DNA of 61,922 nucleotides, filler included, from Hausera hauseri (Eukaryota), in NCBI GenBank assembly GCA_046269625.1. It is 10 parts of 10 records of this genome, joined end to end, with 100 filler letters (N's around TTAATTAATTAA, not from the genome) between each part and the next. Parts side by side here need not be neighbours in the genome. Positions count along the whole stretch, not along the records: positions 34,212 to 39,184 come from JBJURY010374036.1; positions 39,285 to 46,202 come from JBJURY010051663.1; 8 more parts are not named here. The stretch is one strand, 5' to 3'. Position 1 is the first letter of the stretch. The number at the start of each line of letters is the position of its first letter. Shown piece by piece: positions 7,296 through 61,922 of the stretch. The notes under the pieces are model-generated. The model was not told where the DNA came from and made no database searches. It saw only the letters and a program-made list of their open reading frames with translations. A program made the position numbers and the translations under genes.

Positions 7296-7314
7296 TAGTA
7301 GTAGTAGTAGTAAT

Positions 7315-7497: not shown

Positions 7498-7545
7498 ACA
7501 ACTACGATTTGATGCATAAATATTCCATCATTCATTGATTGAATA

Positions 7546-7873: not shown

Positions 7874-8017
7874 ACAATGAATGTAATTATATGATGATTT
7901 GCGATATTGGTACATGGTTTTCATCTTTTTGTCCCAGTTTACCGAATATTACATTATCGTTTCGTTCAAATTCTTGTAATACAAGCAAAACCGACACCAT
8001 CGACAACACCGACAACA

Positions 8018-8378: not shown

Positions 8379-8384
8379 TAATAA

Positions 8385-8916: not shown

Positions 8917-8955
8917 TAAACAAACTGCGTCATCATTATCATCATCATAATCATC

Positions 8956-10011
8956 ATGAGTCTTTACATGATGTTACAGAATAGTAGTTGTCCGACTACT
9001 CGTCCGAACAATTTGGCCAGTCAATACGTTGTGGATTGGGACAATCCGTTATATTTATCCGGCCGATGGGAGGTTGCACTGACGGAATTTAACTTTTCCT
9101 ATGCACCGGTGGCATTGAAAGGTAGTACGAAAATAACGTACAAGACTGTAAATGAAACGAAATCACATTCCTGTCGTCTGACACTTACTAATAATATACT
9201 CTGTCGGAAACCCTTCCATTTGCACGAGAGATCTAAATAATGACGTACAAGAGGGTTTAATTCGTGTTTATCTTAAACAAGGTAAAGTACAGTTTGATTC
9301 AAAAAGCAAATTTACTGTCAGCTTCGAGTTCATTGAAATTGCGCAAAAATGTGGATTCTAAAATACAGAGCTCAAAGGTAATGTTGTTTCTGGTGATTAC
9401 GAAGTTGCACCAAGATTCAGTCCAGTATTTTACGACACATCGGTGAAATTTGTCCTTACTGGACAAAGGGTGTCTACTTCATATGTATCAGTTGGCGATA
9501 ATGTCTATTGTCAATCTGTAGCAGATCTCTGTCGACATATTTCGTCCAATAAATACAAAGGTATATTTAAGGCTTTCACGTCTGATACAAATGGCTACGT
9601 AACATTCGAACTGAATAAGGACGTGGTTAAAATTTCGTTTGATAAAGCTTTTGTCATGGTATTGGGTTTTGAAAAACATCGGCTTGAGGCGAATACGAAG
9701 GCACATGTTGCAACACTTAAACCAAAGCTGAAAAACGCATTACATCAGATGTACATTTAGATGAACGACACCGAACCGATTCTGGTGGGTGGAATACGTG
9801 TGCCGCTAGTCCGTTTAATTTATCCAGAAAGTAACCGCTATACCTCTGGAGATAATGTCAGTGTCAAGCTCGATAATTCAGTGTACTTACTTGTGTCAAC
9901 TACATCTATAAACAATGTCGATGTGACGCGGGCTACTTTATGGAATTTCCATACGGTACCACAACCTCTCTAACTCCTCATTTCCGTCGCAACCAACAAC
10001 AACATGATTGA
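8956..10011 (+). pseudogene. Polinton minor capsid (penton) copy 2
   Basis: N-terminus LYMMLQNSS..PNNLASQYVV..LYLSGRWEVALTEF. C-terminus MYI..TEPILVGGIRVPLVR..FPYGTTTSLTPHFRR. Several stops and frameshifts. Confidence 0.85.
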
Positions 10012-10360
10012 TTCTGAAATCGTTTCCATTTCCAGTAAACTCCAGCAAGGTGGTGAACTGCCGTATTTCGTTGGTAAACAGTATGGCTCTGGATGGTTGC
10101 GTACATTGGCACTTTTAGCATTTCCAGTGTTGAAACGTATTGGAGCCGTGGAAGCAAAAACAGCACAGGATGTACCATATGAAAACAAATCGATTTTACC
10201 ATCATTGAATGAACACGCCTTGTCAAAAATAAAAAGCGCTGCACCTGGAGTCGTTGAATTAGTCAAAAAACAAATCGCTGGTAGTGGCTTGAGAAAATGT
10301 GGTAGAGTAGCTAGCTTTTCAACTGTAAACAAACGTCGTTGTCGTACGATTTTACATTGA
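10004..10360 (+). CDS. Polinton pX/membrane-active-like protein preceding MCP
   Basis: QQGGELPYFVGKQYGSGWLRTLALLAFPVLKRIG...IAGSG (QxGxG plus amphipathic helix), located just before the MCP gene. Confidence 0.7.
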   Translation: MIDSEIVSISSKLQQGGELPYFVGKQYGSGWLRTLALLAFPVLKRIGAVEAKTAQDVPYENKSILPSLNEHALSKIKSAAPGVVELVKKQIAGSGLRKCGRVASFSTVNKRRCRTILH

Positions 10361-10374
10361 TTTAAAACAGACAA

Positions 10375-11610
10375 GTGGCATCTGAAAAATCTGAATTGTG
10401 TATATTTGACAAAGGCGCACCACAAGTAGTTATTGACAATGCGGCATTTGAAGAAATCTACACCATTGATTCTGTTTCAACGGACGATAACATGGACATT
10501 TAATTTAACATTATTACGTCAGACAATGAACACCTCGATTTTAATGACACACCACTGTACGTAAAAGTCATTGTTAAAAATGATGCATCAACGGTTGTCG
10601 CTGCAACAGACAATGTCACACTGGCCAATTGACTTTTCCTCACACTGTTCCAGGAGGCTTCACTGACTCTAAACTGCGTCAAAATCGAAGGCAACACCAG
10701 TCTATACAATATCAAAGCACTTACCGAAACGGCTCTGAATTACAGCGCAGATACGAAAACGACTCATTTGACGAAAACCATCAGATATGACGCCACTGCA
10801 GCAAACCGTCAGTAATGGGTGGCAGAATCAAAAGCGCTTACAATGTGTGGACCGCTGTACTTTGACTTTTTCGATCAGTCGAAATACCTATTGCCTGGTG
10901 TTAAAGCAATGATTCTGCTCAAACGAAGCGACAATGTCTTCTGTTTGAAAACAGCAGTTGCAAATCTCAACCCAATATTGAAAATTACCTAGGCACAATT
11001 ATACTTACGTCGTGTAAAGGTAGAACCATCTGTGCTCATGGGACATCGATTGGGTTTGAAAACGCAAAATGCCTGTTACCCATTACAACGTACAGAACTC
11101 GTGTTTTACACCATACCCAAAAGTTCAACTACTTTTTACAAAGATGCACTGTTTGGCGACATGCGATTGCCGATATTTATGCTTGTTACATTTCAAACGA
11201 CTGCTCAAAAAACGGCTAGTTATACCACCGATTCGGAAACGTTTACTTATAGCAATGTGAATTACATCAGTTTGGGTCGGAATGTGGATTTCGTTGAGAT
11301 ATACAAGCAGGATTTCGAGACCGGTGATTATGTTTGCACATATGTGCAATCTATCATGCGCAACATGGGTTTGACGAACAAAAATGTCAACAATGGCATA
11401 TCTATGGATTTGTTCAAGTCCACCTATCCATTCTCTACCTTTGTCCTGGCTCCAGATTATTATGTTGAACAGACTCAACTACCTCAGCAGGGAAACCTGC
11501 AACTGGAGATTCACGTTGCTAAAGCGTTGGGACAATCTACGGTGATGTACATTTACGGTGTATTTGATGCCGAGGTTGAAATAACGAAAAACCGAACAGT
11601 CATTGTATAA
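10375..11610 (+). pseudogene. Polinton double-jelly-roll major capsid protein
   Basis: (M)ASEKSELCIFD..PQVVI (KSELDLF type), ALTETALNYS, FDFFDQSKYLLPGV, LKRS..FCL, LYLRRVKVEPSVLMGH..ACYPLQR, GNLQLEIH. A few in-frame stops. Confidence 0.92.
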
Positions 11611-11675
11611 ATAAAATCCGATGTGTCTCACCTTTTCTTCTTCGTGCTATGAAGTAATTTATTACTATTACTATT

Positions 11676-12044
11676 ATGCTTAAATCACATTTTACATTTA
11701 GCTCCACTGAGCTCAGTCACTATATAAAACTGCTCTTGGGCGTGAAATCTCGTGGTATGTTTCCAATGGACTGTGCCACTTGATTTACGACAAACTAATG
11801 GTGGTGATGGCGGTTTCGTTGTCAATACACACACTTCTTCGTTGCCGATCGAACATGGGATTGTTGTATATGTCCATTCGATCGTCGTCAGACTATTCGA
11901 TCCGCTAGGATTTTACTACCCGTCATCGTTAGTTTTTCAAACTTAAAGACAATCATCATTATCATACCGAGTTGAATATAATAGACTTCATTATCAATAT
12001 CCAATCTATGTGGATATTACTGTTTATTGTGGCTTACATTATAA
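11676..12044 (+). pseudogene. Polinton adenain-like cysteine maturation protease
   Basis: RGMFPMD, VVNTHTSSLPIEHG (VNTD..PGEHW), LFDPLG (YFDSYG), EYN..YQ..ICGYYCLLWL. Confidence 0.85.
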
Positions 12045-12204
12045 ACGCTTTTATGAACAATGTCTAAATGACTTCTGTTTTGAATTCTTTTTTGTTGTGA
12101 ATTTGAAATATTATTTAGTTATGGTTTTCCTGTTGTACAGCAGATTTGGAATGGATTTTTTTTACAATAAAACGCTTTTCAAATGACAAAAATGTTTGTT
12201 ATAG

Positions 12205-12485
12205 TCGTATAGGTTGGGAAATGGTGTTGTGTGAAACTGGGACAGGCCAATTTTTTCAAGATGTCTGTTATAACCAGATAGGTGGGGAAATGGTGTTGTC
12301 CGTGCTCATAAATGTTAGAAATGCTCACATGTTATAAACTGTCGTGTATATGATGTGATTTGCTCACAATTGCTTAAAATGCTCACATGTTGAAAACTGT
12401 CATGTATACGACTCACCAATCACGTGACAGTCACGTGATACACCCACGCGTCACGCGCTGCATGTGATCAGAGTCACATGACTGC
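12205..12485. repeat. Putative Polinton subterminal region: direct repeats and E-box palindromes
   Basis: taggt(t/g)gggaaatggtgttgt x2, aaatgctcacatgtt..aactgtc.tgtata.ga x2, and clustered TCACGTGA/TCACATGA at 12420-12483. Confidence 0.5.
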
Positions 12486-13379
12486 CATATGATTCCAAAA
12501 CCATGAACGCCTTTGCTCCTACACATTTCATCCGGTCCCACAGGCCCATGTTGGATCCAGACCTCCTCTTTTTGACAGACTTTCCCGTCTTATCGCTTCA
12601 CTCAACCCAAACGATATGTACATCATTCGAACGCCCGTACTCTAAACTACAATCCCACTCATCTATGTCTGCTTAAATTTTGCTTCTGGAAGAAGGTGCT
12701 TTTATTCTTTTGCATTTCCCGGATTTGCTTGAAGTGCTGTAGCGGCGTACTATGCATCATCGAACTCGCCGTGTGTCCATTGACCGGAAACCACGTGACT
12801 CTCACGTAATTGGTCACGATGCGTGGGTGGACCCCCTTTGATCTAGAACGCATTTTCCTCTACTCACTAGCATTCCGTACATCCTTAGTAAACCTGAATT
12901 AATGAAGTTAAATGAAATGGAAAATTGACTTTTTGTTTTTTTTATATAATTTTTTAAGCAAAATGACTTTACTATATTGGATAAATATTTTGATACAACA
13001 GCTTTTAGTGCAATTATCTTTTCGAGATTCTTGTTTACATACACATAAATAATATTTTGTTATTAACTTTGGTCCATTTTAATGTTTAATTTTAAAAGTT
13101 TTAGGTATATAAGGAAATATTAACAATGAATATTAAGATTAATTACAGAGCGTATGCTGCTTGACTGTTTGGTTTCGTAAATGAATGTTTGCTTTGCTGA
13201 ATGTTTGCGTTATTTAGTGTGATTTTATTAGATTATAATTGCCTCGGTATGAATGCACATGATCTCACCAAAGTATCTGCGTCATATACTTCATATATTA
13301 GTCGTATGCGTATTAAATAAAGGCTTTTCAATTTTTCAATTCAATTATATTCAGTCATATGATGTCAGAAAGGAAAAAC

Positions 13380-14095
13380 TTACACTGTTGCAACAAAGGA
13401 AACTCTTAAAACTTTCAGCTAAAACCGTTTGAATTGATATTCATAGATTTTTATTGTCTGCTAAAACTGTCTCCCAAAGGTAAGAAATATATACTGGCAA
13501 TTATCGACCAGTTTAGTAAAGATATAATTCTTCAATCAGTTCAGCGACAAGATGAAACCACATTGGTGAACATATTAGTCCAGAATTTGATATTAAAAAT
13601 TGGAAAATCAAAAACTGTACACTTTGACAGAAAATGCTTTCTTTCAAAGAAATTCGATGATACGTCAAAAATGTTTAATTTCAAAGTACAGTTTTCAAGT
13701 CCCTGTCATCATAAAACTAACGGCCAAGTTGAGAGGCAATTTCGAACTATTCGCTAATGGATAGACTGCTGAATTGAGGATAAATTATTCCGAGATTGAA
13801 CACAAAGTTTACCTTAAGTCAAATTTACATAGAATTCTACGTTTCAAAAAAGTTTGTATATGTTACCGTCAGAAATAATAGAATATAGAACATTTTGCTT
13901 TCAGTCAGAAATCAATTTCAATAAATAAAGATATACAATATGAACAGCCGAAAAGAACTTTCGATATCGGTTACAAGGTACCTTTTAAGTGAGATGTTCT
14001 AAACAAGTCGGACAACAGATTGAAAAGATGCATGAAATATTCTACAGAATTATCGATAAAAATGGTACCTAAAGGATCAGACGTGGAATGGAAAA
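13380..14095 (+). mobile_element. Ty3/gypsy integrase remnant
   Basis: KPFELIFIDF..KKYILAIIDQFSK..FSSPCHHKTNGQVERQFRTIR. Confidence 0.8.
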
Positions 14096-14292
14096 GACCG
14101 TAGTAGGTAGAAGTATCCTCTCCTAACCACTTCCCAAAAAGTGCTCAGATCGAGCTGGAAACCAGTTTTCCCCACCTATCTCGCAATTCTGANNNNNNNN
14201 NNNNNNNNNNNNNNNNNNNNNNNNNNNNNNNNNNNNTTAATTAATTAANNNNNNNNNNNNNNNNNNNNNNNNNNNNNNNNNNNNNNNNNNNN

Positions 14293-17181: not shown

Positions 17182-17705
17182 TTATTAAATAATAAAAATT
17201 AACAAAATGCCAACAAAGCTCTATGGCGTTATAGCATTGGTGGGTGAAGTGAATTTGGCGACTGAAATGAGCCCCAACTTCTGACTAATGCCTTTCGATG
17301 TTTTGCGCTATTTACGAAACGACGAGATCTCATTTATAAATGATAATATTATCGTAGCCCCTGAAATATTTAGTTATGTATAAAATCAGTTACAGGGTCA
17401 TCTTGTGGCTATTTGACGCTGATAGATGATACTTTGTTGAAAATATCTTGAAGGGCTACAAGGTAAAAGATAAGTTTGATTATCCAACAAAATTGTAACA
17501 CAAACCGAGGAATTAATTTAAATTATTGAATATTTTTTACTTTTAAGGCGACGATGTCATTAATTATTAATTTTCTAATATGTAAATTTAACAAAATTAG
17601 TTATTGTTTAAATAAATAGCTTAGCGTTGCTTTTATCGATAATAACAGACTTTCCATGTAATTTCGTATCTACGGAAGAAATTTTCATCAATATTATTCA
17701 TTCAG

Positions 17706-18170
17706 AAGAGTAAATCTCTTGATGCGAGACATGTTAAGAACTTGTCAATTCAGCTTCTTAAAGGCTTGGAATTCCTTCATTATCATTACATTGTACACCG
17801 TGATTTGAAACCGAATAATATCTTTCTGAACACACAAAACCAATTGAAGATAGGCGATTTCGGTTTAGCAAGGCATCTAAGCGATGATCCTGAGCGTAAA
17901 ATGACGACTCAGGTTGTTACTCTTTGGTACCGTTGTCCGGAGTTACTCTTTGGAGTAAATCTGTATGGTTTTGGAGTTGATATGTGGTCAGTGGGTTGCA
18001 TTATTGCTGAAATGTACTTGAAGGGCCCTCTGTTTCCTGGGCAAACCGATATGGATCAAATAACTAAAATATTTGAGGTGCTTTTTACACTTTGTATGGG
18101 GTATTTTATGGTCAATAGGTACTTGGGTCACCTAATGAATCTGACTGGCCTGATTATAGACGTGTAAATC
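17706..18170 (+). CDS. CDK7: CDK7-like cyclin-dependent kinase, exon fragments
   Basis: HRDLKPNN, DFGLAR, TQVVTLWYRCPELLFG, YGFGVDMWSVGCI, PGQTDMDQITKIFE. Removing a GT..AG intron at 18078-18118 restores VLGSPNESDWP. Kinase call is firm; subfamily is less so. Confidence 0.75.
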
Positions 18171-37412: not shown

Positions 37413-40240
37413 ATTGGTGGTGTGAGAGCTTTTGTTTTATTTTATGTTTTGTAGTTACCCTTTGAAGTATTTAGTGAAAAATACATAGACAATACAAAAT
37501 TTATTCTGATCCTCGATTTGTAAATTTCAAAAATGAAAATCATAAAATATTTAAACTTCCATAAATTAAATCAAAGCAAAAATCAAAATTAGATACAGAT
37601 TTATTTATTCATTTCTAAATATTAAAACAAACAAACAAAAACGCAGATACCGACGATTATTAACAAATATTTTCATTTACAGGAATTTACACACTGATCA
37701 TTAAGAAGTAAACAATCACAATTACAGTAAAATTCAAAATATATTTCATTAAGTCTAGATGAGCGAAAGAATCGAGTTTGAGCCGTTTTGTAATAAGTTG
37801 AAAGTCATTACAGATCGTAACAAAGTTATAAGTGTACTAAATAATTTCTTAATGAAGGGATTTCGTCGACTTTTGTCTTTTTTGAACTTGGACTTTTCTG
37901 AAAGGTCTAAAGAAATACGCAAGTTAGGATTTAACGGTTGAACTGAAACAGGTCGAGCGATATTTCCACCCATATTTACATCAGAACCCATTTTATTATT
38001 CTGATTCAATTTTTGTTTCTGTTTAGTAGCTTCGTCAACATCACTTGATCATTCCTTATCTTCGTCGTTTCTAAAACAGACATTATTAGTGGAAAATATG
38101 TCTCTACCCTCAGTTGAAAGAATCGTTTTTAATTTAGGTGAATTGAAAGAGTTCGCTTCCGTGTTTCTTATTTTGGAGCCGATATTAATATCTGAACTGA
38201 TAGTTTTGAAATTTTGACGTTCCTTAATTTGTGTTTCCGTTCATAAACTGTTACAATATGTTTTCTGATTAATGAGACTTCCCTCCAAATAATTTGGAAT
38301 TTCTTGACTAGGATTTACCGGATTATTATCCAAAGGGTAATTAGTGGCTTCTGTTAAAACCGAAGGTGGAACTATAGGAATCGATGCCACTGAGACCTTG
38401 TAGTTACGTTGATGACTGTATCATCGCTGTGAGACCGTAAATGTTTCTGACTTATTTTATGGAGTTTTGCATTTTGAATCACAAAATCATCGCTACCAGT
38501 GGCAGATGTCTCTTCAAGAGGAACTCCATGTCTTTTGTAAAACATATCCCTGATGTATTGCAAATATTTACAGTAGCCAATTATTAACTTCATTATGTCG
38601 GATAAAGTTTCTAAAATGTTTTCTAAAATTTTCCGTAAATCGATGGGCTTTTTTGATAACCCCTTAATACTGTGGAATGTGGATGGCGCCCGAGCCCGCG
38701 GCCCCACAGGTGGATTCAAAATTGGGTCTATTTCTGCTCTTGAATGCTCTATTGGATTCTTCACCATCAACATTGACGTATGTGCCCTCCAGTTGCATAC
38801 TAGCCTTAATGGCCTTGAGCTCAGCTATGTTGTTCTGGAGAATTCCCTGTGTTTCTTTCTCTGTGCACTCCAGGAATTACTTGATGGTTGTTTGACCACT
38901 TGCATCAATGACATTTGCGGCATTTTTCTTTAATGCTGCAGCATCAACTGATCGCTGTCTTTGACTCTGATGAAGCCGGTACGCCTGATGGGTCTGATGC
39001 GCATGATGCTGCTGCGCGTTTCAATTCTCTAAGATGTTTCGCAGCTGCTGCACCAGATACTGCAGCATAATTCGAGGCAGAATACTGCGAAGCATCATAC
39101 TGCAAAACAGATGCATCAATATTATGTTGCTCATTATAGATGGCCTTCTTGGACTTTGATGCGAAGTGACTCAAATGATGTTTGNNNNNNNNNNNNNNNN
39201 NNNNNNNNNNNNNNNNNNNNNNNNNNNNTTAATTAATTAANNNNNNNNNNNNNNNNNNNNNNNNNNNNNNNNNNNNNNNNNNNNACAGGACCATGTGAAA
39301 TCCAAGAAATTGCACAAAAAAACCTTTTCACCCAGTATAACCATAGAAAAAGGTGCTTACGTATAAAATTTTCTCCTCAACGGAATTAAACAAAGACACC
39401 TACAAAAGAAGAATGGGGAACATTAACACTACCGAAAATCAAAGGTAATGTGTACAACTATATCCACCCACAAAGAAAACTGTTGTAAAGTTACCCCTGG
39501 ATCTATTTATTCGGTACAAATACATACATTAAGAAGTAAGGATTTATCCCTGACTGAAAACCGGACAATTGAAATAATGATACCCACCGAACAGAAGACA
39601 ATTACACTATCTTTGACAGATAACTCACCCGAGCAAAAGGAGGAAACTAATATAGAAAGATTATCCTTAGAAGAGCGAATATTTATAGGTCAACCTAATT
39701 GCAAGAAGCAATGATTACCACTTGAATGAGATAGAAAAATACCAAAAGGCAGATAATGCAAATAACCACTCGATATGCCGATATATCCATCATCAATAAC
39801 AACATTCATTACTCTAGAAAACATAATCAATCAACCTGCATATTCTCATGCAGATCTGGAATATTCACTAATAGTCGCCATGTTCCGTCTCGTAAATGGT
39901 ATTTGAAGACAAACCGTAAAAGGAATCGAAAGAAAAGCACCAAGCATTCTTTGCACTCCCAGAGTTGTAGACAATCAATGAATTAATGCCAAAATATTTT
40001 ATGAAAACGAAATTTTAGTAGTTGCACCTCAAATTAGTAGAGCTCACTGCGCTCTATCCTGTGCCACGAAACGTTATTGAGAAGAAATGTATAACCTAGA
40101 GGTCACAAGTTCACGACCCCCGATATGGTGTACAAAACATGACAATTGACAAATACTCCTAAAACTACAGTTACAATCTTCTTGTCCAAATATCTTTTGG
40201 TTGAGTAGTTTTCGCTACTCCGTACATAATAAAATTCCAT

Positions 40241-41450
40241 TTGATAGAAGGATTAAGACAGACCCCAGAACGAATCAAAGTAATCCCATTCAGACTATTG
40301 ACTATCTATCTTCAAATGAGATCTGATCGTGTAATGTTCAGTTTACCTAATCCCAATTTTATCGTCACATTAGATTATGCTAATGACGCTAGCTTTCTGA
40401 TCAGCAGCACTCCAAAAGGGAGTAAATTCATTACTTCGATATCCAACACTCGGCGAGATAATGAAAAGAGGAAAATTCATCTTTAGAAAACCCACCAACA
40501 CTCCTAACGACAATAAAACGCTTGCCATCATATCACCGTCAGTTGAACCAATAAAACAACTTCAAATAGATTATAATATATTCCTGCTAATAGTAATAAT
40601 AACACCCATCAGTGTAACATTGATTATAGCAGCAATTCTTGGTATATACGTGCATAAAGAAACACGAAAAAAGAAATATACCTCCTTCGAGAGCAACACC
40701 TGATAAATTATTCGAAATTCCTCTAACCCACCTGGAATACGACTTCGAAATTTACGGCGACGAAAAATTGTTATCAAACATCAAGGAAGAATACTACCCC
40801 TATGTAGAAAATAACGAGGAACAAATTCTACCAAAGGCTGAACGCTACATGTTAGGATGTACTTGTGAATCAACTAATTCACTGGTCTATACAACAGTAA
40901 ACAACGCCGGAAAAGCCCCACGAATGTTAGCTGTAGCTTCAGAAAACGAAGGAAGAGCTAAAGAAGCTATAACCCAATTAGGCGACGAAGCAGATGAAAC
41001 ACTGAAGTTCCAAGATACAAATGGCAACACCATCATTCATATGAGTGTGTGTCATGATTTCTTTATAATCATGCTCATTCAATCACAAGCACCCTTGCAC
41101 ATACCTAACGTAGATGGAGAAATTCCCTTATTGCTTGCTATACGCCATGGTCGACATAACCTTAGAGCTCTAATATTCTATTATGCCTACGACAACAAAG
41201 TATTTCAGACTATTTTCCAACCACAATTACGCAGTACTCCATTACATCATGCAATAGTATTCAAATGATTTCTCTTATTGGAAGCCTTCCTAAATACAAA
41301 ATTCGACAACTGAACCTACCTATTCGATGTAAACTACGCTCCTGGCACATGAGGAAACTCATCTCATAACTGCACTTTTGACTCCATCCTGATGCGACGA
41401 CCAGATATCTACCCAAAACCCACAATTATCGAAACCTAACGATAAATGAC
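40241..41450 (+). pseudogene. Single-pass TM protein with cytoplasmic ankyrin repeats (Notch-like topology)
   Basis: TM IFLLIVIITPISVTLIIAAILGIYV followed by basic HKETRKKK. Ankyrin motifs QDTNGNTIIHMSV, NVDGEIPLLLAIRHG, RSTPLHHAI. Confidence 0.6.
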
Positions 41451-41773
41451 ATTCTGATACGTGACCCAATGATTAGCTCCTTCGAACGAGAACGCTGATT
41501 AGCCATCATGCGTCGTGAGATAATATAAACAATTTCACACTTCACGAACTTTTATCTAAGTGTATATTTTAGTATGGCTATTTGGTTCTGTATATTGTTA
41601 TCATCTTTATTCCTAATCACTGAGGCTCCTTATTTCATACAACTACCGACACTATCTTATAGCCATTGTATATAACTCATGATTGATATAGTACTGCATG
41701 TTATTGTTTTATGTAATTTTCATTTTATTAGTGTAAATAAACTTTTATCTTTATGTTTTGTATTAAGACTGAA

Positions 41774-42302
41774 AATGGATTCCTATATCGATTCACCAAC
41801 TTTTTATGACGCTTTGGAGTCCTACCTGAGTTTAGACCAATTGCATTATACTGTTTCCAATCAAACAGCTATTCCAAATAACCTAAAGTCTGAGAAACTC
41901 CAACTCTATTCCAGACAAATGTGTATACAACAAACAACAACCGATATAACCAATTCATTATCGCAATTAATCCTTATCGATAAACCAATGAAATTGGACA
42001 TTATAGTCATTCTTTGTGCCTGTGGCAAATTAACTGTCAGTGTCAATTACAATGATCCTATATTCAACATTAATCACGAACTACTTGATAACTCTGCTGT
42101 AATTATTACTATCCCTCCTGTGGAATTATTGTCTTTTACAATTTCCTCTTTAACCAATTGTATACATGCTATGGAATCAATCCAACCAAAACTTATATAC
42201 ACCGACAATGAGGATTATGACCAACCAATACATATACCCAACCCGCTGTCATCAATAAATGCATACATTTCAGCACCAGAAGGGTTATCCCTATCAGATT
42301 AA
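41774..42302 (+). CDS. Uncharacterised ORF in cargo-like gene run
   Basis: Open ~175 codons from MDSYIDSPTFY. No recognisable motif. Confidence 0.35.
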
Positions 42303-42369
42303 AACACCTATTCACCTTCATATCCTATAATTACGTCGCCACTCAACCCAGTTTGACAACTATCAACCA

Positions 42370-42827
42370 GACCATTATTGATATAGTTATACTAGATTAT
42401 AAAAGCGAGATTTTGTTATAACAACACATGTACCCTAGATATAAAGTCATCGACTGGAGAACACCCTTTACAGGCATGACAGATTATCTCACCCTAAATA
42501 AAATCGATAATGAAGATTTCTTACCCCTCATAGAAGGTATACTGAAGCACAAATTCATTATAACGGCACAATTAGATTTACTTTTATGCTCATTGTAACT
42601 ACCCACAACTCATACCAATGGCTGTTTCGATCTTACCCGTCACCATATCGCTACAAACTTCTCGGCAAACCCAGTACTCAATTCGTTTAAGTGAACAATT
42701 ATTACATACCACCAACATTCCTACGCATACATCACGGTTGGTGCAAGCCCACCTACTTAGACAATTGTATAACTATCTGATAAACTCATTTTATATTCAA
42801 GATATTGCCGAATTAAATCTCAATTAA
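42370..42827 (+). pseudogene. DEDDh (REX4/ISG20-like) exonuclease remnant
   Basis: IVILDYKSEILL*QHMYPRYKVIDWRTPFTGMT..IEGILKHKFII resembles VSIVD..G.VL.D.YV.P...V.DYRT..SGIT..ILKGKI+VGH. Later LSEQLL..HTS..QAHLLRQLY resembles the ExoIII region. Confidence 0.6.
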
Positions 42828-42839
42828 GTCTACTTATTT

Positions 42840-43627
42840 TTGGATTTTCCGGAATGTATGGAATGCCGTATAATCCTCGATGTAGCGTACAGACTCACAC
42901 CTTGTCTACACTTATCTACACTATATTGCCCAATTTGTAAATCTGAGATCAAATACTGCATCCAACATAATTCTTATGAATCTGATGCTGCCCAATCATT
43001 ACTCGACGCCCATATATTTGACATTCTTGAACCTACTGATCACATTACATATTACTACACTTGGTTGTGTCAACCCCTTTCTCTATTCCTTTTTTCCAAC
43101 TCCATACATGTTGTTTATGCCATAAACCCAATAAAACAACTTACCAATTTAGTTGTTGTAGTGTCGAATACTGCTCCCATTGTTACCAAGCAGAATCCCA
43201 CCACCGCCACCTTATTTGCAGCATATGCTATTTCTGTCCTCAATTTATATATTCTTATTTCCATCACGCTATAAGAGCCCTTCTCACTACTACTAACACG
43301 CCAATTCCCAAATTACTTCTAATCAGATATTTTCGATTAGAACCACAATCATCCGCCAGAGTTGAATTTACAATCTATCGTTTTAGCCCGTCCACAATAG
43401 TCAGGCCACCACCAGTTACATACAAAGCACCTTTACCCCACATAAATGTCACGTCCCTAATACGTCAACCATCCTCAATACCACATGCACGTTATCGTCC
43501 CGAACAGATTATTAGGCCGTTACCTTTACTACCAGCACCTACACCTTCAATAACACGTACAGACTATATCGCATTTCCCTCCACTACCATCATCGTTACA
43601 ACAAGATTGGTTCCCAGTCTTAAATAG
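42840..43627 (+). pseudogene. RING-like and further Cys-rich zinc-finger remnant with Pro-rich tail
   Basis: ECMECRIILDVAYRLTPCLH..CPICKSEI, then CCLCH..CCSVEYCSHC..ICSIC. Confidence 0.55.
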
Positions 43628-44005
43628 ATGTCCGATTGATCTCATTACCGACCTAACTTCACCAGACCTTTGGGCATCACTGCAAATCCTTACCGAACGT
43701 ATAAATGTGGTCAAATTCCAATGCAACCACAATCTATGTGCAACGTGCTTCAACAAACTTCGACCATAATTCCTTCAATTCATCGACCAAAGCGATGCTC
43801 TCAGAATGACCTTCCAGAACGGCATTTCATGCCCTTACGGCCGTCAACCAACCGTCTATTATCACTTCTACACCTACGACAACCGCACCAAACTACTATG
43901 CCATTGGATCAACCCAGTGAACGATGCGACACTAAGAATAAAACCCAGAAACCTCAGCTTCATTGATGTCAGTACCCAGAGTGATCTGGAGGACCGAATC
44001 CTTTT

Positions 44006-44196
44006 AAAAGGTGGAAAATGTTAGGGTTCGTTAATTGAACTCAACAACCCAACAAAACCAAGACACTGACAATTTATCGTGATCCTAACAAAAACTGACT
44101 TTATATGATCAAATCAAACATTATAGACTGTGACTACATGTATATTATTGTGCTTATTAATTAAACATTTGTATATATAATTGTTAACCAAAGCGG
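44006..44196 (+). repeat. Putative PPT + short LTR + PBS-like site
   Basis: ctggaggaccgaatcctttt-AAAAGGTGGAAAA-TGTTAGG, the gypsy 'LEDxxxxKGG' 3' signature with TG at 44019. ATTAAA near 44160. TGTTAACCAAAGCGG at 44182 resembles TGGTAxCAGAGCG-type primer sites. Confidence 0.5.
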
Positions 44197-46419
44197 CTAA
44201 ATATTAATTAATAAAAACAGTTAACATATAAAATATTCACCAGACAAAATACTATAACTTAAAGAATGTATACATAATTAGATGTTAGAAGATATTAGAA
44301 ACACGGTAAAAAATGTGCCAATAAATATGGCAAATGCACAATAATGGAAACCAATTTGGAAATAGGATACAAATTTGCCCAGAAATATACAACCCCGAAA
44401 TATGCAATAATAAAATTTAGAATATGCAGGAACATGTACATAATCAGAATTAGGATATACTCAGAAATATACAATAACTGACAATCAGAGAAAAACAAAA
44501 ATACAATAATGGAAACTTTAACTCCATAAGTATGCACAAATAATGTTAAAACAGCTAATTAATCAGTTTAGAAACCAAAATTAATCAATTGCTTAATTAA
44601 ACAATTTGGAAAAACCAAAACTTATGGAATTTCCAGAATATAAAATTAGAATATGATTAGACAAATTTCGCACATTGGTTACCAGAATTTTAATAAATAT
44701 AGAATGTGAAATTACTAATCTAAAGGAACAGTACTCACAACAAAACCTAAATGAAATCATACGTTACCTTCGCCAACTATTTACCAAATCGAAAAACTGA
44801 AAACATTGAAACAGAATCAGCTAGGGAAATATCAACATAACCAGACATTGAAATGAGCCATAGGCAAACCTGGCTGCGTATATTCCTATGGGAAATTAAT
44901 AGAACCCTAGATAAACAACAATCCTCAGATTATCACTATTTAAAAACATCATTTGTAGCGCTGATTGACAATACTTCACCCAAGGCGATACCTACGCCTT
45001 TAAAACTATAGCCTCAACAGTATTTAAAAACCAACCCTCTCAATTTACATACAGGAGTTTTTACATAATTTACCACATTGAATACATCTATTTACCAATT
45101 GCTTAACACAGCCTTACATAGATCTAAACAGTCGGAAATCTCGACACAGGACATAGAAATACTCAACGATCTAGAGAGATTGTGGTATAGACCACGTAAT
45201 TAACGGGCTTTGGACTCGGAGAATGCGAAATATTGAAAACGACCGAGAACAGTATAAGAAACACATGGATAGACCTATTACTATTGGAAGCAGGACTGGA
45301 AGACGAACCCCTCACAGAGGAGCTGGTTGGAGCCCTCATTAATGTGATCGAGAAAACCGAATATTTCAAAAACAAAGCTTAAAATGTTAGAAGAGTTACG
45401 ACATGAAGTCGAAATACTATACGATGGATACTTAAAAGATAAACAAGCATTAGGAACCGTACATCTTGATAGGGAGTGGATGAGAGCAAAGTGCGGGTAT
45501 GTGCATAATACACAAATAAATGCAAATTGCAACATTCAATATTTACCAGTGGAATAGAAAATCTATAAAAGAGGTCAATTCCCAGAGGCAATCTATAGAC
45601 TGAAAATACGCAAGTATTACGATAGGAAATTGCTGTATTAACTGTAAGACGTGCTTATGATAAATAAAAATATAGACGTAAAATTTGGACAACCCGATTA
45701 TTGCATTACGTAAAAATATATAAACAATAATTAGCGATTACAACAGAGGTTACAATCAGCTTTCAGACAATGAAAAGAACCCCAAGCCAAACTCCAAAGT
45801 ATCGAAACATGACCCTTGGATATTTCATAATGTTAGCAAATTAGAAAGAGAGCAAACCATGAAAATGGAATGGCAAAGACATTTTATCCATTGCATAGAG
45901 GAACAGAACCTCGAAATTTCAAAAGGAAAAACAAGCTATACTGAATTATTTATTTGACATGGAAAGGTTTGGATCTTATAACCCCACATTACACCTAGAC
46001 ATTTACTACTATGAAATGATAAGAAGATGCGCTGATAGCTATTCAAATATTCCAATTAGAAGAAGAACGATCACGGAAGAAGATTCCAATAAGCAAATTA
46101 GAAAGTGTTGTACAAATGAATCACAGAATATGCATCTGCAGTAAACTAAGGTCACCGATAGAAAAATTCCTTTAACAAAAATTATACGCAAGTGCTTAGA
46201 TANNNNNNNNNNNNNNNNNNNNNNNNNNNNNNNNNNNNNNNNNNNNTTAATTAATTAANNNNNNNNNNNNNNNNNNNNNNNNNNNNNNNNNNNNNNNNNN
46301 NNTATTTATATCCAACAACCAAAATTAAAAAAAATTTTTTTGACACAAACCGACCAATCAAATTACACCAAGTGGGGGTGTGAATAGTGAAACCACGATC
46401 AGGCCAGAAAAAGCTTTTT

Positions 46420-53060: not shown

Positions 53061-54779
53061 AACCAATGATTGTTTCTTTCACACCAAACTTTACTATCAT
53101 CCATATCAAGAAGTATGCAAAATTGGTAAACGTTTTATTGATAGAGAAAATTTTGAATCATTTGTATATGACACTATCCCAATTAACAATATAATAGAGG
53201 TAAATTTAATCACATTTAGGGCAGATTGTACCAGATCTGTTCTGCAACACAGATTCTGGCCGGTGGCAACTCCTTACGTCAATGACACCAATGCGGCGCA
53301 TGGTGATTTGCCGTTGATACTAAGCGAGACACGAATGGAACTTGACGCATTCGGTCATTGGTTAATCAGTGTCTATCAACTCCGTTTTGGCGATGTTGCA
53401 TGCTAGAAATCAAAGGGGCCATCTACTGTCTTTATGGACACTTCTATATTGTTCTCGTTGGAGAAACTAGCGCACGACGGGGTAAGAGTGCTTGTTGTGT
53501 AGATTTGTCGGCAATTGTCTTTTTTGTATAACTTTTCAACATAAATTTTATTTCCTCCGGTTGCCATATTTTTTATGTATGATTTTCAGTCTCCGTTAGC
53601 AGAAAATATCTTGTCATTTTTCCTTATCGCCTTTTCCATATTAAGGCCTAACGATGTCTTACAATCGTTCTCAACAACGATCCTTAACCTGTATTATTGT
53701 CATGCTACGTTCAAGTATTACGTTCATGACCTGCTTTGTGCCTTTTTACAATTTAAGAACATTAGTGTATTGTTATTAAAACATTGGTGTATTGTTTCGC
53801 ACGATCAACCCTGTACGTTTTCCAAACTATCGTTTGGTGTAAACTGCATTGATTCATTCTTCGACCGACACTTCCATCACGATTCGAAATTTACATTTGG
53901 AAATTTCCCTCTTGAATTTCTTAAAGTATTGCCTATTGTCGCCGGTACAAATTTTCAACTCGCTGGCATGGTGTATTACAATTTATCCGCATGTTAGGCT
54001 GCGTTGTTCCGCTTACTTTAGAACTGTACTAATACCGAGAAATATTTTAAAACTATGGCCCAGCTTTTAATTCTCTACCAACATACTACGTACGTGAAGT
54101 TGAAACTAATATTTGGCGTTTTTGCCGATGAAATTGAAAAGTATTCCATGTTTACAATATTCTGTTCCACATTTGTTGACATCCAACGATGTTGGATTTT
54201 TATTAACATTGTAACTTTTGGTGATGACGGGGAAATTATGATACATTCCGATATGTTCCGTCCACATATTGTCTCGCCTTTTCCCACCTGGGCTACTATG
54301 CAGTTCTGTACCTGTACGTAACTTCTTGGAACTGAATTGCTACCCTTTTTCGACATAACATTTTCTGACAACACATACAAAGCGAAATTGAGGTTTGTAT
54401 CTCTGACTGGACCCACCGGAGGGAAGTCTATTCCCCCGGATTTTCAGGTCCATCACAGTTTGACTGACTACCCCGCCACCTATTCTATATCCGTAAGTCC
54501 CATGTCATGGACTGTTCCGTCACCACATCAACCACTATGGCCTACACCGACTCTTTCCTTTATATTTTTCGTAAATAATTGCCAATTATTCACACACAAT
54601 ACAACGTATTTTATAGACGCACATTACGTGAACAATTATGTACTACACTTTGCTAATATCTCTGACTTTTACCTCACTTACAACGACCTACTTGTAATTA
54701 ATGTCAATTTTCGCAACCTTTCTGTTCCTTCAACCCAATATATCATTAATCACGTACACTTTCGTATCTGTGGTTGCAT

Positions 54780-57050
54780 GGATTCTTCACCCACTATTGA
54801 CTTTAGTAATAAAACTGACTCTGAAGCAATACCCTTCACTTTTCTCCAAAAATCAACGACCATCACCACACCATCTACTTTCACCACTTATACACCTTCC
54901 ATCCCGCCAGCCAAACAAACTTCTTCTCAGTGCACAGAATACTTTATCGACCATGAACGTCCAGCAAGACATAGCTCAACTTTCACAAACTCTGGCCACA
55001 GTATAACAGTATTACCGATCCCTCAGCCAAGGCTAATAGCTTACTTTTCCTCTTACAAACACAGTAAAGACTTCTCTTCACGATATTTTAGACATCTTTC
55101 AACAATGTAACTCGTACACTCACTCTATAATGCAGTTTTGAAAATCAAGGAACCGTATATGGATTCCATAACCCATAAATTATTCAATGATAACGCTTTG
55201 AGTACACAAAAACCATACGATTTTCTTAAAACCTCTAACTCAACTGGAAACACGGCGTTACAAAAGAAAATAATTCCAGTCTCTTACGACGCAACTTTCT
55301 CAACGCATTACCGATTCAGATCAGGGCCTTGCTTACCATCGTCGAGGAATCGACAGAACTATATAAGTTAGCCGAACTTGCAGACAAAACGTACGCGGTT
55401 TTACATCTTAACACACAAACTATCATAGAATCTCAAATACAACAGTTGCGAGCGAAAACCGCAGCCCTACATTATTCAATAACTAATATATACGAGAGAT
55501 TAAATGAAGTCGTTATGACCCAACGAAAGGGTTCCACCTACGATCACGCACGCTCTGTACCCAGAGGTCGATAACCTTCTCCAGCACGATCGCTTATCTG
55601 TTTTTACCATGATATGTTTGCTCATAAAGCACAAAAATGTCGTCTTGGGTGCCGTTTTTACTCACAAAAGTATCACATTAATAACGCTATTTTCAACTAC
55701 TACGCAAAATTTAAGAATGATGCACATAAGTGTATCCATAATTGCATCTTTTGAAGCAGCACGCAGCATACGAACGTCGGACGTACTGTCTCGTTTTCTA
55801 ACAGCCGCCCAAGTTCACCACTGTCAAAAAACTAATGCTGCCGCAAAAGCTTACGGCGAGTACTGGCGAAGGCCATTATCCAGTTTCTACCAGCCGAAAA
55901 CTTCCTTTCGCCGTATTTACCGTAAAAGCAGTAACTACGTTACTAACAACTTGCCACATAGATTTCCTTATCTATCCAGGTGCAGCGATTTCTTTAGTGC
56001 CACTCACCTTTTCAACTCAACACACTTCATCTAAAAATAAACCTCTATTTACAGCTTCTGGACAACCGCTACATGTTTCCGATACATGTATGCTTTATTT
56101 TACTCTTACGAAATTTACTAAAACGTTCCACTAGACGCTTATCGTTGCAAACTTCCAGACAGTCATTTTATGATCCGACTTTCTTTCGCACTATAATCTC
56201 CTTGTCGACTGTAACCAACGTTGCTTAAAAAGTGGTTGCAATAAGAAGCGATTCGATCACGTTGATACCATTTCGTCTGCCGTGCGGGTGAACGCAAGTC
56301 GAAAACCAATATTAAAAACCGTTGCACAAATAATTTTATTACAATCATGGCAATTTGTTTTATAAATTATTAAAAAACGATATTACTGACGATTGGGGAT
56401 TGCACTGTGATGAACATGATCCCGTTACCACTACCAAATCACTGGATAAGACTACCATCTGCAATACCATCTTCAATACTACCATCCGGCATCGAATACC
56501 ACTTCATTTTTGATTATCAAATGACGCCAAAATTGCTACTGTTACTGATACAACCACAATTACTGATAAAACCTCCTTGCTCCCTCCAAACTTTTCACAA
56601 TTACCTGCAAGTCTGCAGCAATTCATCAGCGAATTTTGTTCTAGAATTATTCAAAAAGACAGGTCTTTTACACATGCAAATACCACTTTTCATCACATTA
56701 TAACACAACATCAGAGACCTATCCGACAGAAAGTGCGTCCATTGTCTCTTCATTGCAGACAGGCCGTTGAAGCCGAATTTCTAGACCTTAAACGCTCCGG
56801 TATTGTACGTCTCTCCAAATCCCCATGGTCGTCGCCTTTGCATGTCGTACAAAAGAAGGATGGAACTTTTAGACTATGTGGTGATTATCGCCAGTTGAAC
56901 ACTTTGACCATCATGGATGCACACCCGCTGCCACTCATTAAGGATATCTTATACCGTCTCAATTCCACTACAATTTATCCTATCATTGATTTATCCAAAG
57001 CCTACCATCAAATTCATGTGGCACCTGAAGATATCGAAAAAACAGCTCGC
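54780..57050 (+). mobile_element. Ty3/gypsy gag-protease-RT remnant
   Basis: LYKLAELADK, CFYHDMFAHKAQKCRLGC knuckle, FLIYPGAAISLVP protease, PWSSPLHVV..FRLCGDYRQLN..IDLSKAYHQI. Confidence 0.9.
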
Positions 57051-57358: not shown

Positions 57359-58290
57359 GAGACGGAAATAAACACCAGAACGTTTAAACTGGAGACTCAA
57401 GACATTCGGATCGAAGATTACTTGAAGAACAGAGACGACTACTTCTATTATAAAGGGCAAGCCGGAATAGCGGAGTTATATCACAAGATGATAACAAACG
57501 ACTGTAAATTGGACTTAGAAGTTATGAGGACTAAGCTCGCTTTAATATATATGAACCCTGTGCTAGCATCGCCAATAATTCCGATGAAAGATGGCGCTTT
57601 TGGACGGGTAACCGGAGAAGTTTTATTGACGTATAAGTGCGACAAAAAGGACATACCGATTAATGTGGAAGAAAAGAGATGTATACAAGAGCTCCCAGTG
57701 ATATATCAGGACGTACCGAGATTAGCAACGCCAATTATCAGAGTGTTGTTGGCAAATGCCACTCAACCGACAATCTTGAGAGACTGTAAAACTATCTTAG
57801 GAGAACTGATGTTCAGACTTAGCGAGACCGACTGGGTAAGTTTACCAAACGGCGGCATTATCGCGCCACCTGCCAAGTTGACAGGAACAAACTTAATAAA
57901 GGGAATAGCCGACGATAAATTTCAGGACACAGTCGCGAAAGGCATTTACCGACCAAAAGAAGTAAAGGCGTGCCGACAGTTTCTCGCCTTTCCTCGTCAG
58001 CGTACGCACAAACTGATTCGAGCAATGCACACAATATTGGAGGACTCCCGTTATCAAGCATTACTTGGTGTTGGCAATTATAAAAAGGTAACTACGGAAA
58101 TATTGTACAAAATTTGGGAAGGTTCCTAATATTTGGACAGGCTACGTCAGGATTTCTAGCAATATATTTCTTAATTCAACTGGTAAAAGCTATAATTCAA
58201 GCGGTTATAAACGGATACGAGATATTAATCTTGACAAGATTTTCATGCAAGATTTTAACGGCCATCATTACACCCTTCGGAAAATTCTGA
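57359..58290 (+). pseudogene. Chuvirus-like (gB/class III-type) envelope glycoprotein, C-terminal half
   Basis: LY..MITNDCKL..LAL..NP..GAFGRVTGEVLLTYKC..RCIQELPV..PIIRVL..DC..W..GIY..LAFPRQR. After a frameshift, a membrane region FLIFGQATSGFLAIYFLIQLVKAIIQAVINGYEI. Confidence 0.8.
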
Positions 58291-58949
58291 AGGCTTATGA
58301 AGAAAGTAAATGGAAAACAGGTGTAGAGCGACATGTTGGCTACCACAACCGAAAACGTAAAAGACACATATTCGATTATAGGCAAAAACTTCTGCACAGT
58401 AAGACACGAAGAAATAATTCTGACGATAACAAACCTAAGGGAGGAGATGTCATCTTCAAGCCAAGCCGACATGAAAATTACTCCGTTATGAAGCTACCAT
58501 TACCAATATTGCCACCAACGGCACCAATATAAGAAGACTGCGAGAAACAATCTATGAGCTCGTGTCAGACAGACGTCTATCGAAAGCCATTTAACATAGA
58601 GGATCCCTAAGAAAGAACAAAACGTTACGGGATATTGCGCAAGATCCACAAAACAGAGAGAACGTTTATCCCACATTATCGCTCAGCAGTCGACGATCAC
58701 GGTATAATATATTACCCCAGAGTACCTAGATCAAATGAAACACAGTCATTATTTACCAGAAGTTGTGAGACACGCAATCTCCGAAATCAAGATGTTCAGC
58801 CGCCAGTTAGAAGCCAAGGAGTAGAAAACGCGAATGGGACGAATAACGAACTGTACCCAATTGGAGAGTTAAGACAGTTAATCGAGCAGCCAGTTGGAAT
58901 CACTGAAGTTACGATAAACGGCTACAAAATGTCTACGATACGACAATCC

Positions 58950-61922
58950 AAGATAGCACCAAGCTATTACGGTAAAGTAATCGGAGGCAGGCCTTTCGCA
59001 AAGATTCAATTAAAAGATTGGGAGGTTTATGCACTAATAGATACAGGATCCGAAATATCACTGATAAAATATGATTCAGTACCGAAATTCCTACGGAAAG
59101 AATTGTATGCGTATCCTACGACGGACCCAGGAAGTATTGGAGACTTCGGACAATCATCGAAAAGTAAATTCCGATGGAAACCAGAGATACACATAATGGG
59201 ATAATCTTTCCCTCATGAATTTTCATTAATGGAGCAATTAACGAAAGATGTAGTGTTAGAATGTGATTTATTGAGACAACTACCCAATATAGCAATCGAC
59301 TTCAATGCAGGCAAGCTGATAGAACTTGAACCGATAAAAGGAGCTAAAACGACGAAAGACAGAAAGTTTGGAGAATTGTGGATTCTAGTAGACGAAACCA
59401 TACCACCCAGGACAGAAAATCTAATATATGCTCAGATACGTCAGGATGACGATCAGCCAATCTATTTCGAGCCAAAGGAATCGCTCGATCCATACCTCGT
59501 GCTCAGCAATGTTTTGACAGGAGTATCAACCGGCCGCGTGCCAATAAGAATAGCAAATAACGCACCGATTCCTATTAAACTGTACGCCAATACCACTTTG
59601 GGACACACGTGTAGGGTATCATCTATCACTATTGAGGAAAAACCATATAAGGGCGCCGAATTTCCGCCCCACGTGGCGACTATGTTTTCACCAGAATCAT
59701 ATTGTCGACTTTACGAACTACTTTGTCGTTATAGTTCAATTATCGCGAGAGATGAAGAAGATATTGGCCGAGCCAAAACCCTAAGACTCACGATTCCACT
59801 TAAGAAAAAGCCTGGATCAAAGGAAGAAATTGATTTGGAGGATCAAAAGATGCCGAAGTAATACCCTCCTCCACACTCATTAAGGCCAGATATAACCAAA
59901 GAGGTTGAACGGATGTTAAAAGCCGACATAATGAGACCAAGCTATAGATCTTGGTATTCACCGATACTGATGGTAAAGAAGAAAGGTACCAGTAAACACC
60001 GATTTTGTATCGACTATGGAGCATTAAATACACTTATGATAAAGGACTCTTTTCCGTTACCATCGGTGAAGGAAGCTTTGGACAGACTTTCTGGAGCTAA
60101 ATGGTTTACCACTCTTGACTTGCAATCGGGGTATTGGCAAGTGGAGATAGAAGAGGAAGACCGCTACAAAACGGCATTTAAGACACACGACGGTATATAC
60201 GAATCACTACGAGACCAGCTATCTTTACCCGCATGATGAACAAGATGCTAATGGGACTGGAACACTCGTTCGCCTATTTAGATGACGTCATGATTGCCTC
60301 GAAAACGGAAGACGAACATTTAAAGCATATTGAAGGTACACTTATAAGGCTGGAACAAGCCGGACTAAAACTAAATCCTAAGAAATGCAAATGGGCTCAA
60401 AACGATGTGTCTTATTTTGGGCACATAGTTGGCGAAGGAGGATCGAAGCCAGACAAATCATTACCAAACAAGATATAGGAATGCATGGAACCCCAGAACC
60501 AAAAGGAATTAAGACATTGGTTAGGTTTGTGTGGGTATTATGCTACCTACGTACCAGACAACGCGAAGATAAACGCACCTTTGTACATATTATTAAAAAA
60601 GGGAATCAAATAGAAGTGGACCGATTTCGAACAAAAGGCTTTTGATGAAATGAAGAAAAATTTAACTATTGAACCGTTTTTAAAATATCCGGATTTCAAC
60701 CTACCATTCATAATCAAAACGGATGCCAGTAAGAAAGGTATCGGATATGAACTGGCTCAAAAACAAGAAGACGAGGAGTTAGAACACCCAATCGCATATG
60801 GAGGGCGTTCTCTAAAGAAAGCTGAGAAGAACTATTCCGTAACAGAGTTGAAAAGGTTGGCAGTAAAAGAAGAACTGCGAAATTTTAATGTATACGTCTA
60901 TGGACAAAAGATTATAATCGTTACTGATCATAAAGCAGTTACGACTTTAAAAGGTAGAGCAAATAATCCAACGTGTAGACTTAATAGATGGATTGAGGCA
61001 AGCCCGGAAATAAACATGTAGATGCCGATGCATTAGCAAGACTTAAGACTAAAACAAGCTCCGTTACGATAATGAGAAAAAACCACCTCGAGGAATTAGT
61101 AGAAAGAAAACTGATTCTCGTGCTGGATAATGCATTAAGGATTTCTGTCGAACAAAAGAAGGACGGAGTTATACAACAAATTATGGAGTTCGTAGACACC
61201 GGCAAGATATCAAAAGGCCACCAGTTCCAAAAACACCTACGGAGATATGGTCAAAAATACTGCATCACTGGAGATTTGAATCATGAAAATGTGTTGTACT
61301 GCGAACGAAAAAGACGAAAATTAGTTGTTATACCGAAAGGATTACGAGCGGAAGTGCTAATGGCCGAACATGACTCATACTTAGCCGGACACATGTCGTG
61401 GAAAAGGACATTGGAAAGGATATTAAATAAGTATTATTGGCCGAGCATTTACATCAACGTAAGAAATTGGGTGAGTGCTTTCGAAGTATGCGCAACCAAA
61501 CAAAGAAAGGTAAAAAGCTACATCGCCGAACTTAAACCTATCGACGTGCCCGGTAGATTAATGCAAGCAATGTCTATGGATATTGTAGGACCACTGCCTG
61601 CAACCCACAAGAATAACAAATATATTTTGACCTGCGTAGACCGACTGACTCACTTCGTCGAAATTGTAGCGTTATTAGACCAAAAGGCCCAGACTTTGCA
61701 GAAGCCGTAGTTCGGAAAATCATTTGCAGATACGGGCCACCCGAACAAATCTTGACAGACCAAGGAAGAAACTTTACGATCGAATTGTTCGATAAAATTA
61801 CCAAAATTTTTGAGATTAAGCGATTAACTACCACAGCTTATCATCCCCGATGTAATGGAATGGTCGAACAAATGAACGCGACAGTTATACGAATCTTATC
61901 GACAGTAGTCGCAAAAGACCAG
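58950..61922 (+). mobile_element. Ty3/gypsy pol (PR, spacer, RT, RNase H, integrase), a different family from the other gypsy copies
   Basis: ALIDTGSEISLI, SPILMVKKK..RFCIDYGALN, LDLQSGYWQV, YLDDVMI, TDAS, NYSVTELK, TDHKAV, HDSYLAGH, MDIVGPLP, ILTDQG, YHPRCNGMVE. Confidence 0.95.

Follow-up and report, generated by a model that had tools for sequence, protein, structure and literature searches.

We analysed a window of 61,922 nucleotides, filler included, from Hausera hauseri (Eukaryota; NCBI GenBank assembly GCA_046269625.1). The window consists of separate contigs joined by N spacers. Hence, neighbouring contigs are not linked to the block of DNA described here, which lies on a 6.9-kb contig (39285-46202). 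The block is repeated and intronless, with all coding remnants on one strand and intact relatives in nature; at its end is a polypurine tract (PPT) and then a TG start, both common to other copies. These data support an accessory gene block ending in a PPT and a start of the long terminal repeat (LTR) type. We believe that the block probably held the 3' accessory genes of a large LTR retroelement, of the Ty3/gypsy type and similar to Burro. The contig is cut at 39285 and the block represents 4.7 kb of element interior. Membership of Ty3/gypsy seems likely; we infer both 'giant' and 'gypsy', because searches of the contig detected no pol domain.

Coding potential was assessed using a minimal-break path over three frames, compared with 200 block shuffles. 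On the + strand, the four coding blocks of 39285-44021 had between 1.0 and 2.6 breaks per 100 codons, against shuffle means of 2.9 to 4.1, and each had fewer breaks than 199 to 200 of the 200 shuffles. There was no significant signal on the - strand of these blocks (13-29% of shuffles as good). The signal was borderline for the spacer at 41528-41774 (6% of shuffles as good) and none was detected in 44019-44600. C exceeded G across 39001-44000 (skew of -0.10 to -0.41), and colinear tblastn alignments with three intact relatives revealed no introns. The shuffle test, skew, and alignments all agree with an earlier note on this DNA, which described same-strand, intronless, skewed open reading frame (ORF) remnants.

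Copy status was judged from contigs of a single public run (X1), possibly the window's own sample, aligned at 80% identity or more. A total of 13,138 contigs aligned to the 6.9-kb contig: 522 at 99% identity or above, 1,820 at 95-99%, 4,658 at 90-95%, and 6,138 below 90%. Put differently, 10,796 were less than 95% alike. Transitions accounted for 1,329 of the 1,867 differing places. Summed depth, which is not copy number, was 805-11,646 across 39285-43904 and 11 at 44367-44597. At one differing place, up to 113 separate contigs varied from the window; hence, the caveat on depth notwithstanding, the family is large and diverged. We conclude that the contig belongs to a family with very many copies and is itself a decayed member. 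The block is not single-copy DNA, a possibility raised in the earlier note. This evidence comes from one run. Relatives of the block were found neither among viral contigs, where one 18-base match was set aside as chance, nor among JGI metagenome contigs. The contig has no similarity to the rest of the window and contains no tandem repeat, tRNA, or Rfam family.

At the 3' end of the block, the peptide LEDRILLKGG, which we take to be a gypsy signature, is encoded at 43986-44015. The sequence runs into the purine tract and TGTTAGG follows at 44019, so that the peptide, PPT, and LTR head named in the earlier note are all present. Depth in this region was read in 29-nt bins. It fell from 90,870 at 43967-43995 to 16,015 at 43996-44024 and 10-35 at 44025-44082, returned to 112-361 at 44083-44227, and was 7-22 from 44286 on (to 44720). 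Contigs of the run left the window at 44005 (54 contigs) and 44011 (12 contigs), where they showed a G-rich purine run and then disagreement (agreement 0.69 and 0.66, respectively). Because depth drops, and departing contigs disagree, past the purine run, the PPT and head are family features and the U3-side body is not. The proposal of a repeated LTR at 44019-44180 thus holds for its head, but not for its body. Note that a fixed head with a variable body means that standard LTR finders would miss, or mis-cut, this family.

Immediately before the PPT, a segment of about 70 nucleotides (43938-44004) had roughly tenfold the depth of the cargo genes. This suggests a cis-element common to many more elements. 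The segment has no stable fold (z 0.32) and no Rfam match. On the other side, the likeliest right end of the LTR is TAACA at 44222-44226, where depth drops. A perfect 7-bp inverted copy of the TGTTAGG head is found at 44084-44090 (chance about 0.02 within 210 nucleotides, chosen post hoc), and the 72-bp unit that it closes, 44019-44090, could be an alternative, very short LTR. No primer-binding site was recognised behind 44226, where TGG occurs just at 44328, 44345, and 44357. Weak direct repeats at 44300-44520 did not beat shuffles. The features of the contig are as follows.

39285-39540, + strand: broken coding remnant at the contig edge, with likeness to an SH3-like integrase C-terminal domain (by eye, three frames)
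39541-40583, + strand: broken coding region ahead of the transmembrane (TM) helix, a probable ectodomain or further polyprotein domain
40584-40640, + strand: TM helix, then basic residues; presumed type I topology (Kyte-Doolittle mean 2.89)
40696-41528, + strand: acidic, Tyr-bearing juxtamembrane stretch and ankyrin-repeat domain (Pfam Ank_2, relative P0002)
41529-41774, + strand: 246-nt spacer, rich in T (45%), from the ankyrin stop to the next ATG
41775-42827, + strand: one 350-residue gene, with an N-terminal beta-rich domain and an ISG20/REX4-like DEDDh domain without catalytic residues
42828-44024, + strand: broken finger region with three Cys/His fingers, a Pro-rich linker, and a tail ending LEDRILLKGGKC
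about 42855-42938, + strand: RING-like finger 1 (Cys/His spacing; in frame behind the pseudonuclease stop)
43109-43228, + strand: Cys-rich finger 2 (Cys/His spacing; Pro-rich linker, then finger 3)
about 43630-43840, + strand: RING-like finger 3 (Cys/His spacing; sub-cut-off Pfam RING match)
43938-44004, + strand: pre-PPT segment, present in many more sequences than the cargo is (summed depth 25,025-90,870)
44005-44018, + strand: PPT (12 of 14 purines; purine run at the same place in other copies)
44019-44226, + strand: probable 3' LTR that begins with TG and ends with TAACA, its 5' body low in copy and its 3' part moderately repeated (right boundary uncertain)
44600-46202, + strand: second repeated, A-rich, broken coding block, behind a single-copy spacer (0 of 200 shuffles as good)

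Within the cargo, the earlier note had separated an unknown ORF from a REX4/ISG20-like exonuclease. When the exonuclease-like frame was used as a query, 2 of 36 candidates were returned: P0151 (350 residues) and P0152 (349 residues), both intact and 71% identical to each other. Each spans 41775-42824 in three colinear pieces, with 59-64% identity to the window. Because both relatives cover this interval colinearly, the two ORFs are one gene, 41775-42827. Its start and end are identical in all three sequences (window, P0151, and P0152). In the window copy, two stops interrupt the frame, which also switches near 42215-42290 and 42676-42681.

A profile of P0151 and P0152, compared with 177,635 PDB sequences, gave four matches at E<=10: PolC exonuclease, ISG20L2, ISG20, and SDN1. 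All four are DEDDh nucleases, with matches that are weak by score (E 0.025-0.29). Pfam RNase_T was matched by one of the two relatives (E 0.15). An AlphaFold model, with a predicted local distance difference test (pLDDT) value of 35, was also compared using Foldseek; ISG20L2 ranked first (E 0.018), among mixed rows that held many DEDDh nucleases. Cupin/oxygenase-type rows for the N-terminal domain, at ranks 14, 18, and 36, are leads only. This N-terminal half alone matched nothing among proteins of 96-307 residues or in Atlas.

The likeness to REX4/ISG20 exonucleases is therefore weak but concordant, whereas the catalytic acids are absent from all three sequences. In PDB alignments of P0151 and P0152, and in the window, ExoI D/E is replaced by N/V and ExoII D by L. 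The DYRT-x-x-x-G type motif of the ISG20 group is retained as DWRTPFTG. Since the intact relatives have an ISG20/REX4-like domain without catalytic acids, we refer to the protein as a pseudonuclease. That intact, diverged copies have lost the acids speaks for a retained role other than catalysis. This role may be RNA binding, given the retained motif and the precedent of Maelstrom and EXD1, which are described as inactive DEDD derivatives that retain RNA binding (PMC5408684, available in part).

The TM helix and ankyrin repeats of the earlier note were borne out by helix hydropathy (2.89), a Pfam Ank_2 match (E 4.6e-6), and the intact relative P0002. This relative has 236 residues and is 65-77% identical to the window; residues 1-235 align without introns and P0002 ends where the window frame ends. 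That natural end is the stop at 41526-41528. The window copy, 40696-41528, is interrupted by four stops in frame and changes frame near 40700 and 41360-41410. When the ankyrin part was compared with 1.84 billion representatives, P0002 was the sole close relative (75%), and the other 149 proteins listed were generic ankyrin matches (25-38%). No longer homologue of P0002 was found at E 1e-20 among 5,147 candidates, which is weak evidence. P0002 stops short of the helix, and joining helix and ankyrins into one, probable, protein requires reading across the frame switch near 40700. A Notch copy was rejected, because there was no EGF/LNR match in Pfam and Notch was only 22nd of the 39 PDB matches to the ankyrin domain.

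Ahead of the helix, 39541-40583 gave a + strand coding path that was equalled by 1 of 200 shuffles, with no match in Pfam, NCBIfam, PHROGs, or PDB. The predicted fold of 39766-40327 (pLDDT 32) had no structural match; the ideas that this part is a phosphoesterase or ADP-ribosyltransferase found no support and were dropped. Further upstream, 39285-39540 by eye resembles the SH3-like C-terminal domain of gypsy integrases, and had no Pfam or PDB match. If this reading is right, pol would lie directly upstream.

The finger region also differs in part from its first description. Three Cys/His clusters are present, but RING matches are weak and two of the three clusters have no Pfam match. Finger 3 alone scores against Pfam RING (E 0.0037-0.24). 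Finger 2 has a complete set of Cys pairs; in this decayed copy, ligands are missing from fingers 1 and 3 (C3HC4 needs eight). PDB matches to the RAD18 and PML RINGs were not significant (E 1.1-4.7). At 42825-42860, the pseudonuclease stop leads in frame into finger 1, whose first Cys precedes the first Met. As both relatives stop at the same place, translation of finger 1 would take splicing or readthrough, unless a start has been lost here. The last small ORF, previously listed separately, shares a frame with finger 3. Because the Pfam match crosses the stop between them, it is probably the finger 3 tail.

Signals for expression may lie in the spacer between the ankyrin and pseudonuclease genes. 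It contains AATAAA at 41736, and its T-rich tract ends in AG at 41766, the sole AG of the last 40 nucleotides, 7 nucleotides ahead of the next ATG. This arrangement resembles a poly(A) site followed by a splice acceptor. Flatworm operons have, by definition, a spacing of at most 300 nucleotides and are resolved by spliced-leader trans-splicing (PMC12582326, available in part). A spliced-leader route would be possible if the host is a flatworm, and ordinary sub-genomic splicing is likewise possible.

How might these genes work together? Live copies would encode an ankyrin protein anchored in the membrane, a pseudonuclease that binds RNA, and ubiquitin ligases of the RING type. The block would be copied by reverse transcription within the element, with the PPT priming plus-strand synthesis. 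We suggest that a long upstream ORF, perhaps that of the pol polyprotein, would end in the TM-ankyrin protein, which, bound to the membrane, would offer host signalling proteins a scaffold or decoy. Downstream genes would be translated from sub-genomic RNAs made at acceptors such as 41766. With its RNA-contact motif kept and metal-binding acids lost, the 350-residue protein would bind RNA ends and not cut them; most likely, it would shield element RNA or compete with host 3' exonucleases. The fingers would recruit E2 enzymes, leading to removal of host restriction factors. Hence, the earlier idea of a viral-style host-modulation kit is plausible, but its nuclease part changes, because catalytic residues are missing in the window and both relatives. 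Taken jointly, such host-modulation functions are possible rather than probable. A more elaborate proposal seems unlikely. It would have a giant, envelope-bearing gypsy lineage of an invertebrate act like a complex retrovirus, with a conserved 3' operon of genes aimed at the host, comprising a membrane ankyrin decoy, RNA-shielding pseudo-ISG20, and several RING ligases. One polycistronic RNA would be resolved by spliced-leader or cis-splicing, and the LTR head would be fixed while the U3 body is swapped between copies.

The closest parallel is with planarian Burro/GYPSM1. In both cases there are very many copies, ankyrin and RING-related cargo, and accessory ORFs (PMC6431247, available in part). 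Burro elements have ankyrin, RING-related, BIR, BCL2, and MATH motifs, and env precedes the protease (PR) gene (PMC6431247). This last likeness is found here on an unlinked contig, 57359-61922. On its + strand, a Monjiviricetes-type fusion glycoprotein (Pfam PF24664, E 1.9e-18) lies upstream of PR. The full gene order is fusion glycoprotein, PR, a 218-residue stretch without a family, reverse transcriptase (RT), RNase H (RH), and integrase (IN), which is the Burro order. Because of this order, we conclude that Burro-like elements exist in this genome. Differences are also apparent. Here, the cargo ORFs are separate and immediately precede the PPT, a TM helix lies ahead of the ankyrins, and there is an ISG20-like pseudonuclease; none of these is listed for Burro in the part of PMC6431247 available. 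The Burro internal region is about 25 kb, with a polyprotein of about 4,900 residues, against 4.7 kb of interior on our contig; the size of Burro is also covered in PMC11410931.

Juno and Vesta, LTR elements of bdelloid rotifers, similarly have a gene with a 3'-exonuclease fold as 3' accessory ORF (PMC5408684). Their ORF3 is RNase D-like, of the DEDDy type, with catalytic residues intact, whereas the protein here is ISG20/REX4-like, of the DEDDh type, and lacks them. Here, the nuclease-like domain is also joined to a beta-rich domain, and its neighbours are ankyrin and RING genes, neither of which is named in PMC5408684. The best sequence and fold neighbours of the 350-residue protein are the DEDDh RNA exonucleases ISG20, ISG20L2, REXO4, and SDN1 (PMC3985635, available in part). 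Compared with that cluster, it is mobile, lacks the catalytic acids, and has an extra N-terminal domain. Maelstrom and EXD1, host silencing factors compared here by description, offer a model for a dead nuclease fold working by RNA binding. LTR-mediated retroposition (PMC5131818, available in part) provides a route for acquiring host domains and variable DNA beside LTR ends. Captures described there are young with recognisable parents; the cargo here is old, family-wide, and without a close parent found. No paper describing this gene set before a PPT was found in the literature covered; subscription papers, Repbase, and the original Burro paper are outside that scope and may bear on novelty.

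Several points weigh against a large Burro-like element. Neither Pfam nor PDB searches of the contig detected RT, RH, or IN, just as the earlier note had said of pol, and the integrase-tail likeness at 39285-39540 was seen by eye. The contig with the Burro gene order is not linked to the cargo block. Matches to BIR, BCL2-like, or MATH/TRAF domains were absent from the contig in Pfam; in Burro these lie 5' of pol, outside our piece. No second LTR, primer-binding site, or target-site duplication is visible on the contig. Furthermore, the LTR body is rarer than the interior (10-35 and 112-361 versus 805-11,646) and is not family-wide. The RING scores fall below the Pfam cut-off, both AlphaFold models are poor (pLDDT 35 and 32), and the depth values carry the limits given above, namely that they are not copy numbers and that the run may be the window's own sample.

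The lack of pol would also fit a non-autonomous LTR derivative, in which the block sits between LTR ends and its genes are captured passengers, kept temporarily. The 70 nucleotides before the PPT, ten times deeper than the cargo, look as if common to many derivatives, and LTR-mediated mRNA capture is general in animals (PMC5131818). However, relatives with 59-77% amino acid identity keep full ORFs with the same ends, which passengers would not, and no close host parent of the ankyrin part was found among the 1.84 billion representatives. We give this explanation a small probability.

Less probable still is that the genes belong to other mobile DNA or an endogenous virus (Polinton-like, large DNA virus, or Penelope/Terminon-like), with the PPT and LTR head as an unrelated neighbour. 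Large DNA viruses often carry ankyrin and RING genes, and Polinton-type pieces occur on other contigs of the window. Terminons bear DEDDy nucleases and TM ORFs (PMC6431247). Conversely, the last ORF enters the PPT in frame, and the contigs listed reach from 43880-43887 to the PPT before diverging. Nor was a relative found in viral contigs or by fold, where the model was uninformative.

It is very improbable that the pseudonuclease is instead an active RNA-trimming enzyme. The ISG20-like motif and matches would suit such an enzyme, as would rotifer LTR elements that have DEDDy ORF3s with intact active sites (PMC5408684), but the ExoI and ExoII acids are absent in three of three sequences and, by eye, ExoIII also seems lost. 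An ordinary host gene family, or segmental duplications, is the least probable explanation: ankyrin, DEDDh, and RING domains all have a cellular origin, but there are no introns, genes are spaced by 0-246 nucleotides, diverged copies are very many, and the block has a PPT/TG end.

For the preferred reading, a Burro-like 3' accessory region, the block would work like that of a complex retroelement. Burro-type elements have been proposed to interfere with the ubiquitin and cell-death systems of their hosts, an idea described as untested (PMC6431247). The block names three candidate effectors in a fixed order, two of which have intact natural proteins open to assay. In particular, a dead ISG20-type relative kept by a retroelement would provide a simple test of whether mobile elements turn host RNA-decay enzymes into shields.

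Downstream of the LTR, the second coding block (44600-46202) had a depth of 129-2,378 and no family match passing a cut-off. A PHROG match at 45724-45954 (E 0.0027) was set aside as chance. This block may represent the 5' portion of another element arranged in tandem, mark an older site of insertion, or be DNA that was captured.

A variety of mobile and cellular sequences, gypsy pieces among them, occurs on the remaining contigs, and from these the host is taken to be an AT-rich eukaryote, most probably an animal. On the - strand, 34212-39184 has remnants of a protein-primed type B DNA polymerase and an endonuclease VII-like stretch, of the Polinton/adintovirus type. By eye, 5994-14192 is also Polinton-like, with an integrase remnant and capsid-like ORFs without a Pfam match; the same contig has a TBP-like ORF (5994-6483, - strand, Pfam E 2.1e-7). 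Directly upstream of a gag-like gypsy remnant, 54322-55110 (+ strand) is a 262-residue open frame without a Pfam match. A low-complexity tri/hexanucleotide repeat fills about 8 kb (26003-34111) with a GC skew of +0.75 to +0.89. Finally, an armadillo repeat occurs on another contig, and 17646-18167 (+ strand) is an unbroken, strongly diverged protein-kinase frame of 173 residues that is CDK7-like by eye.

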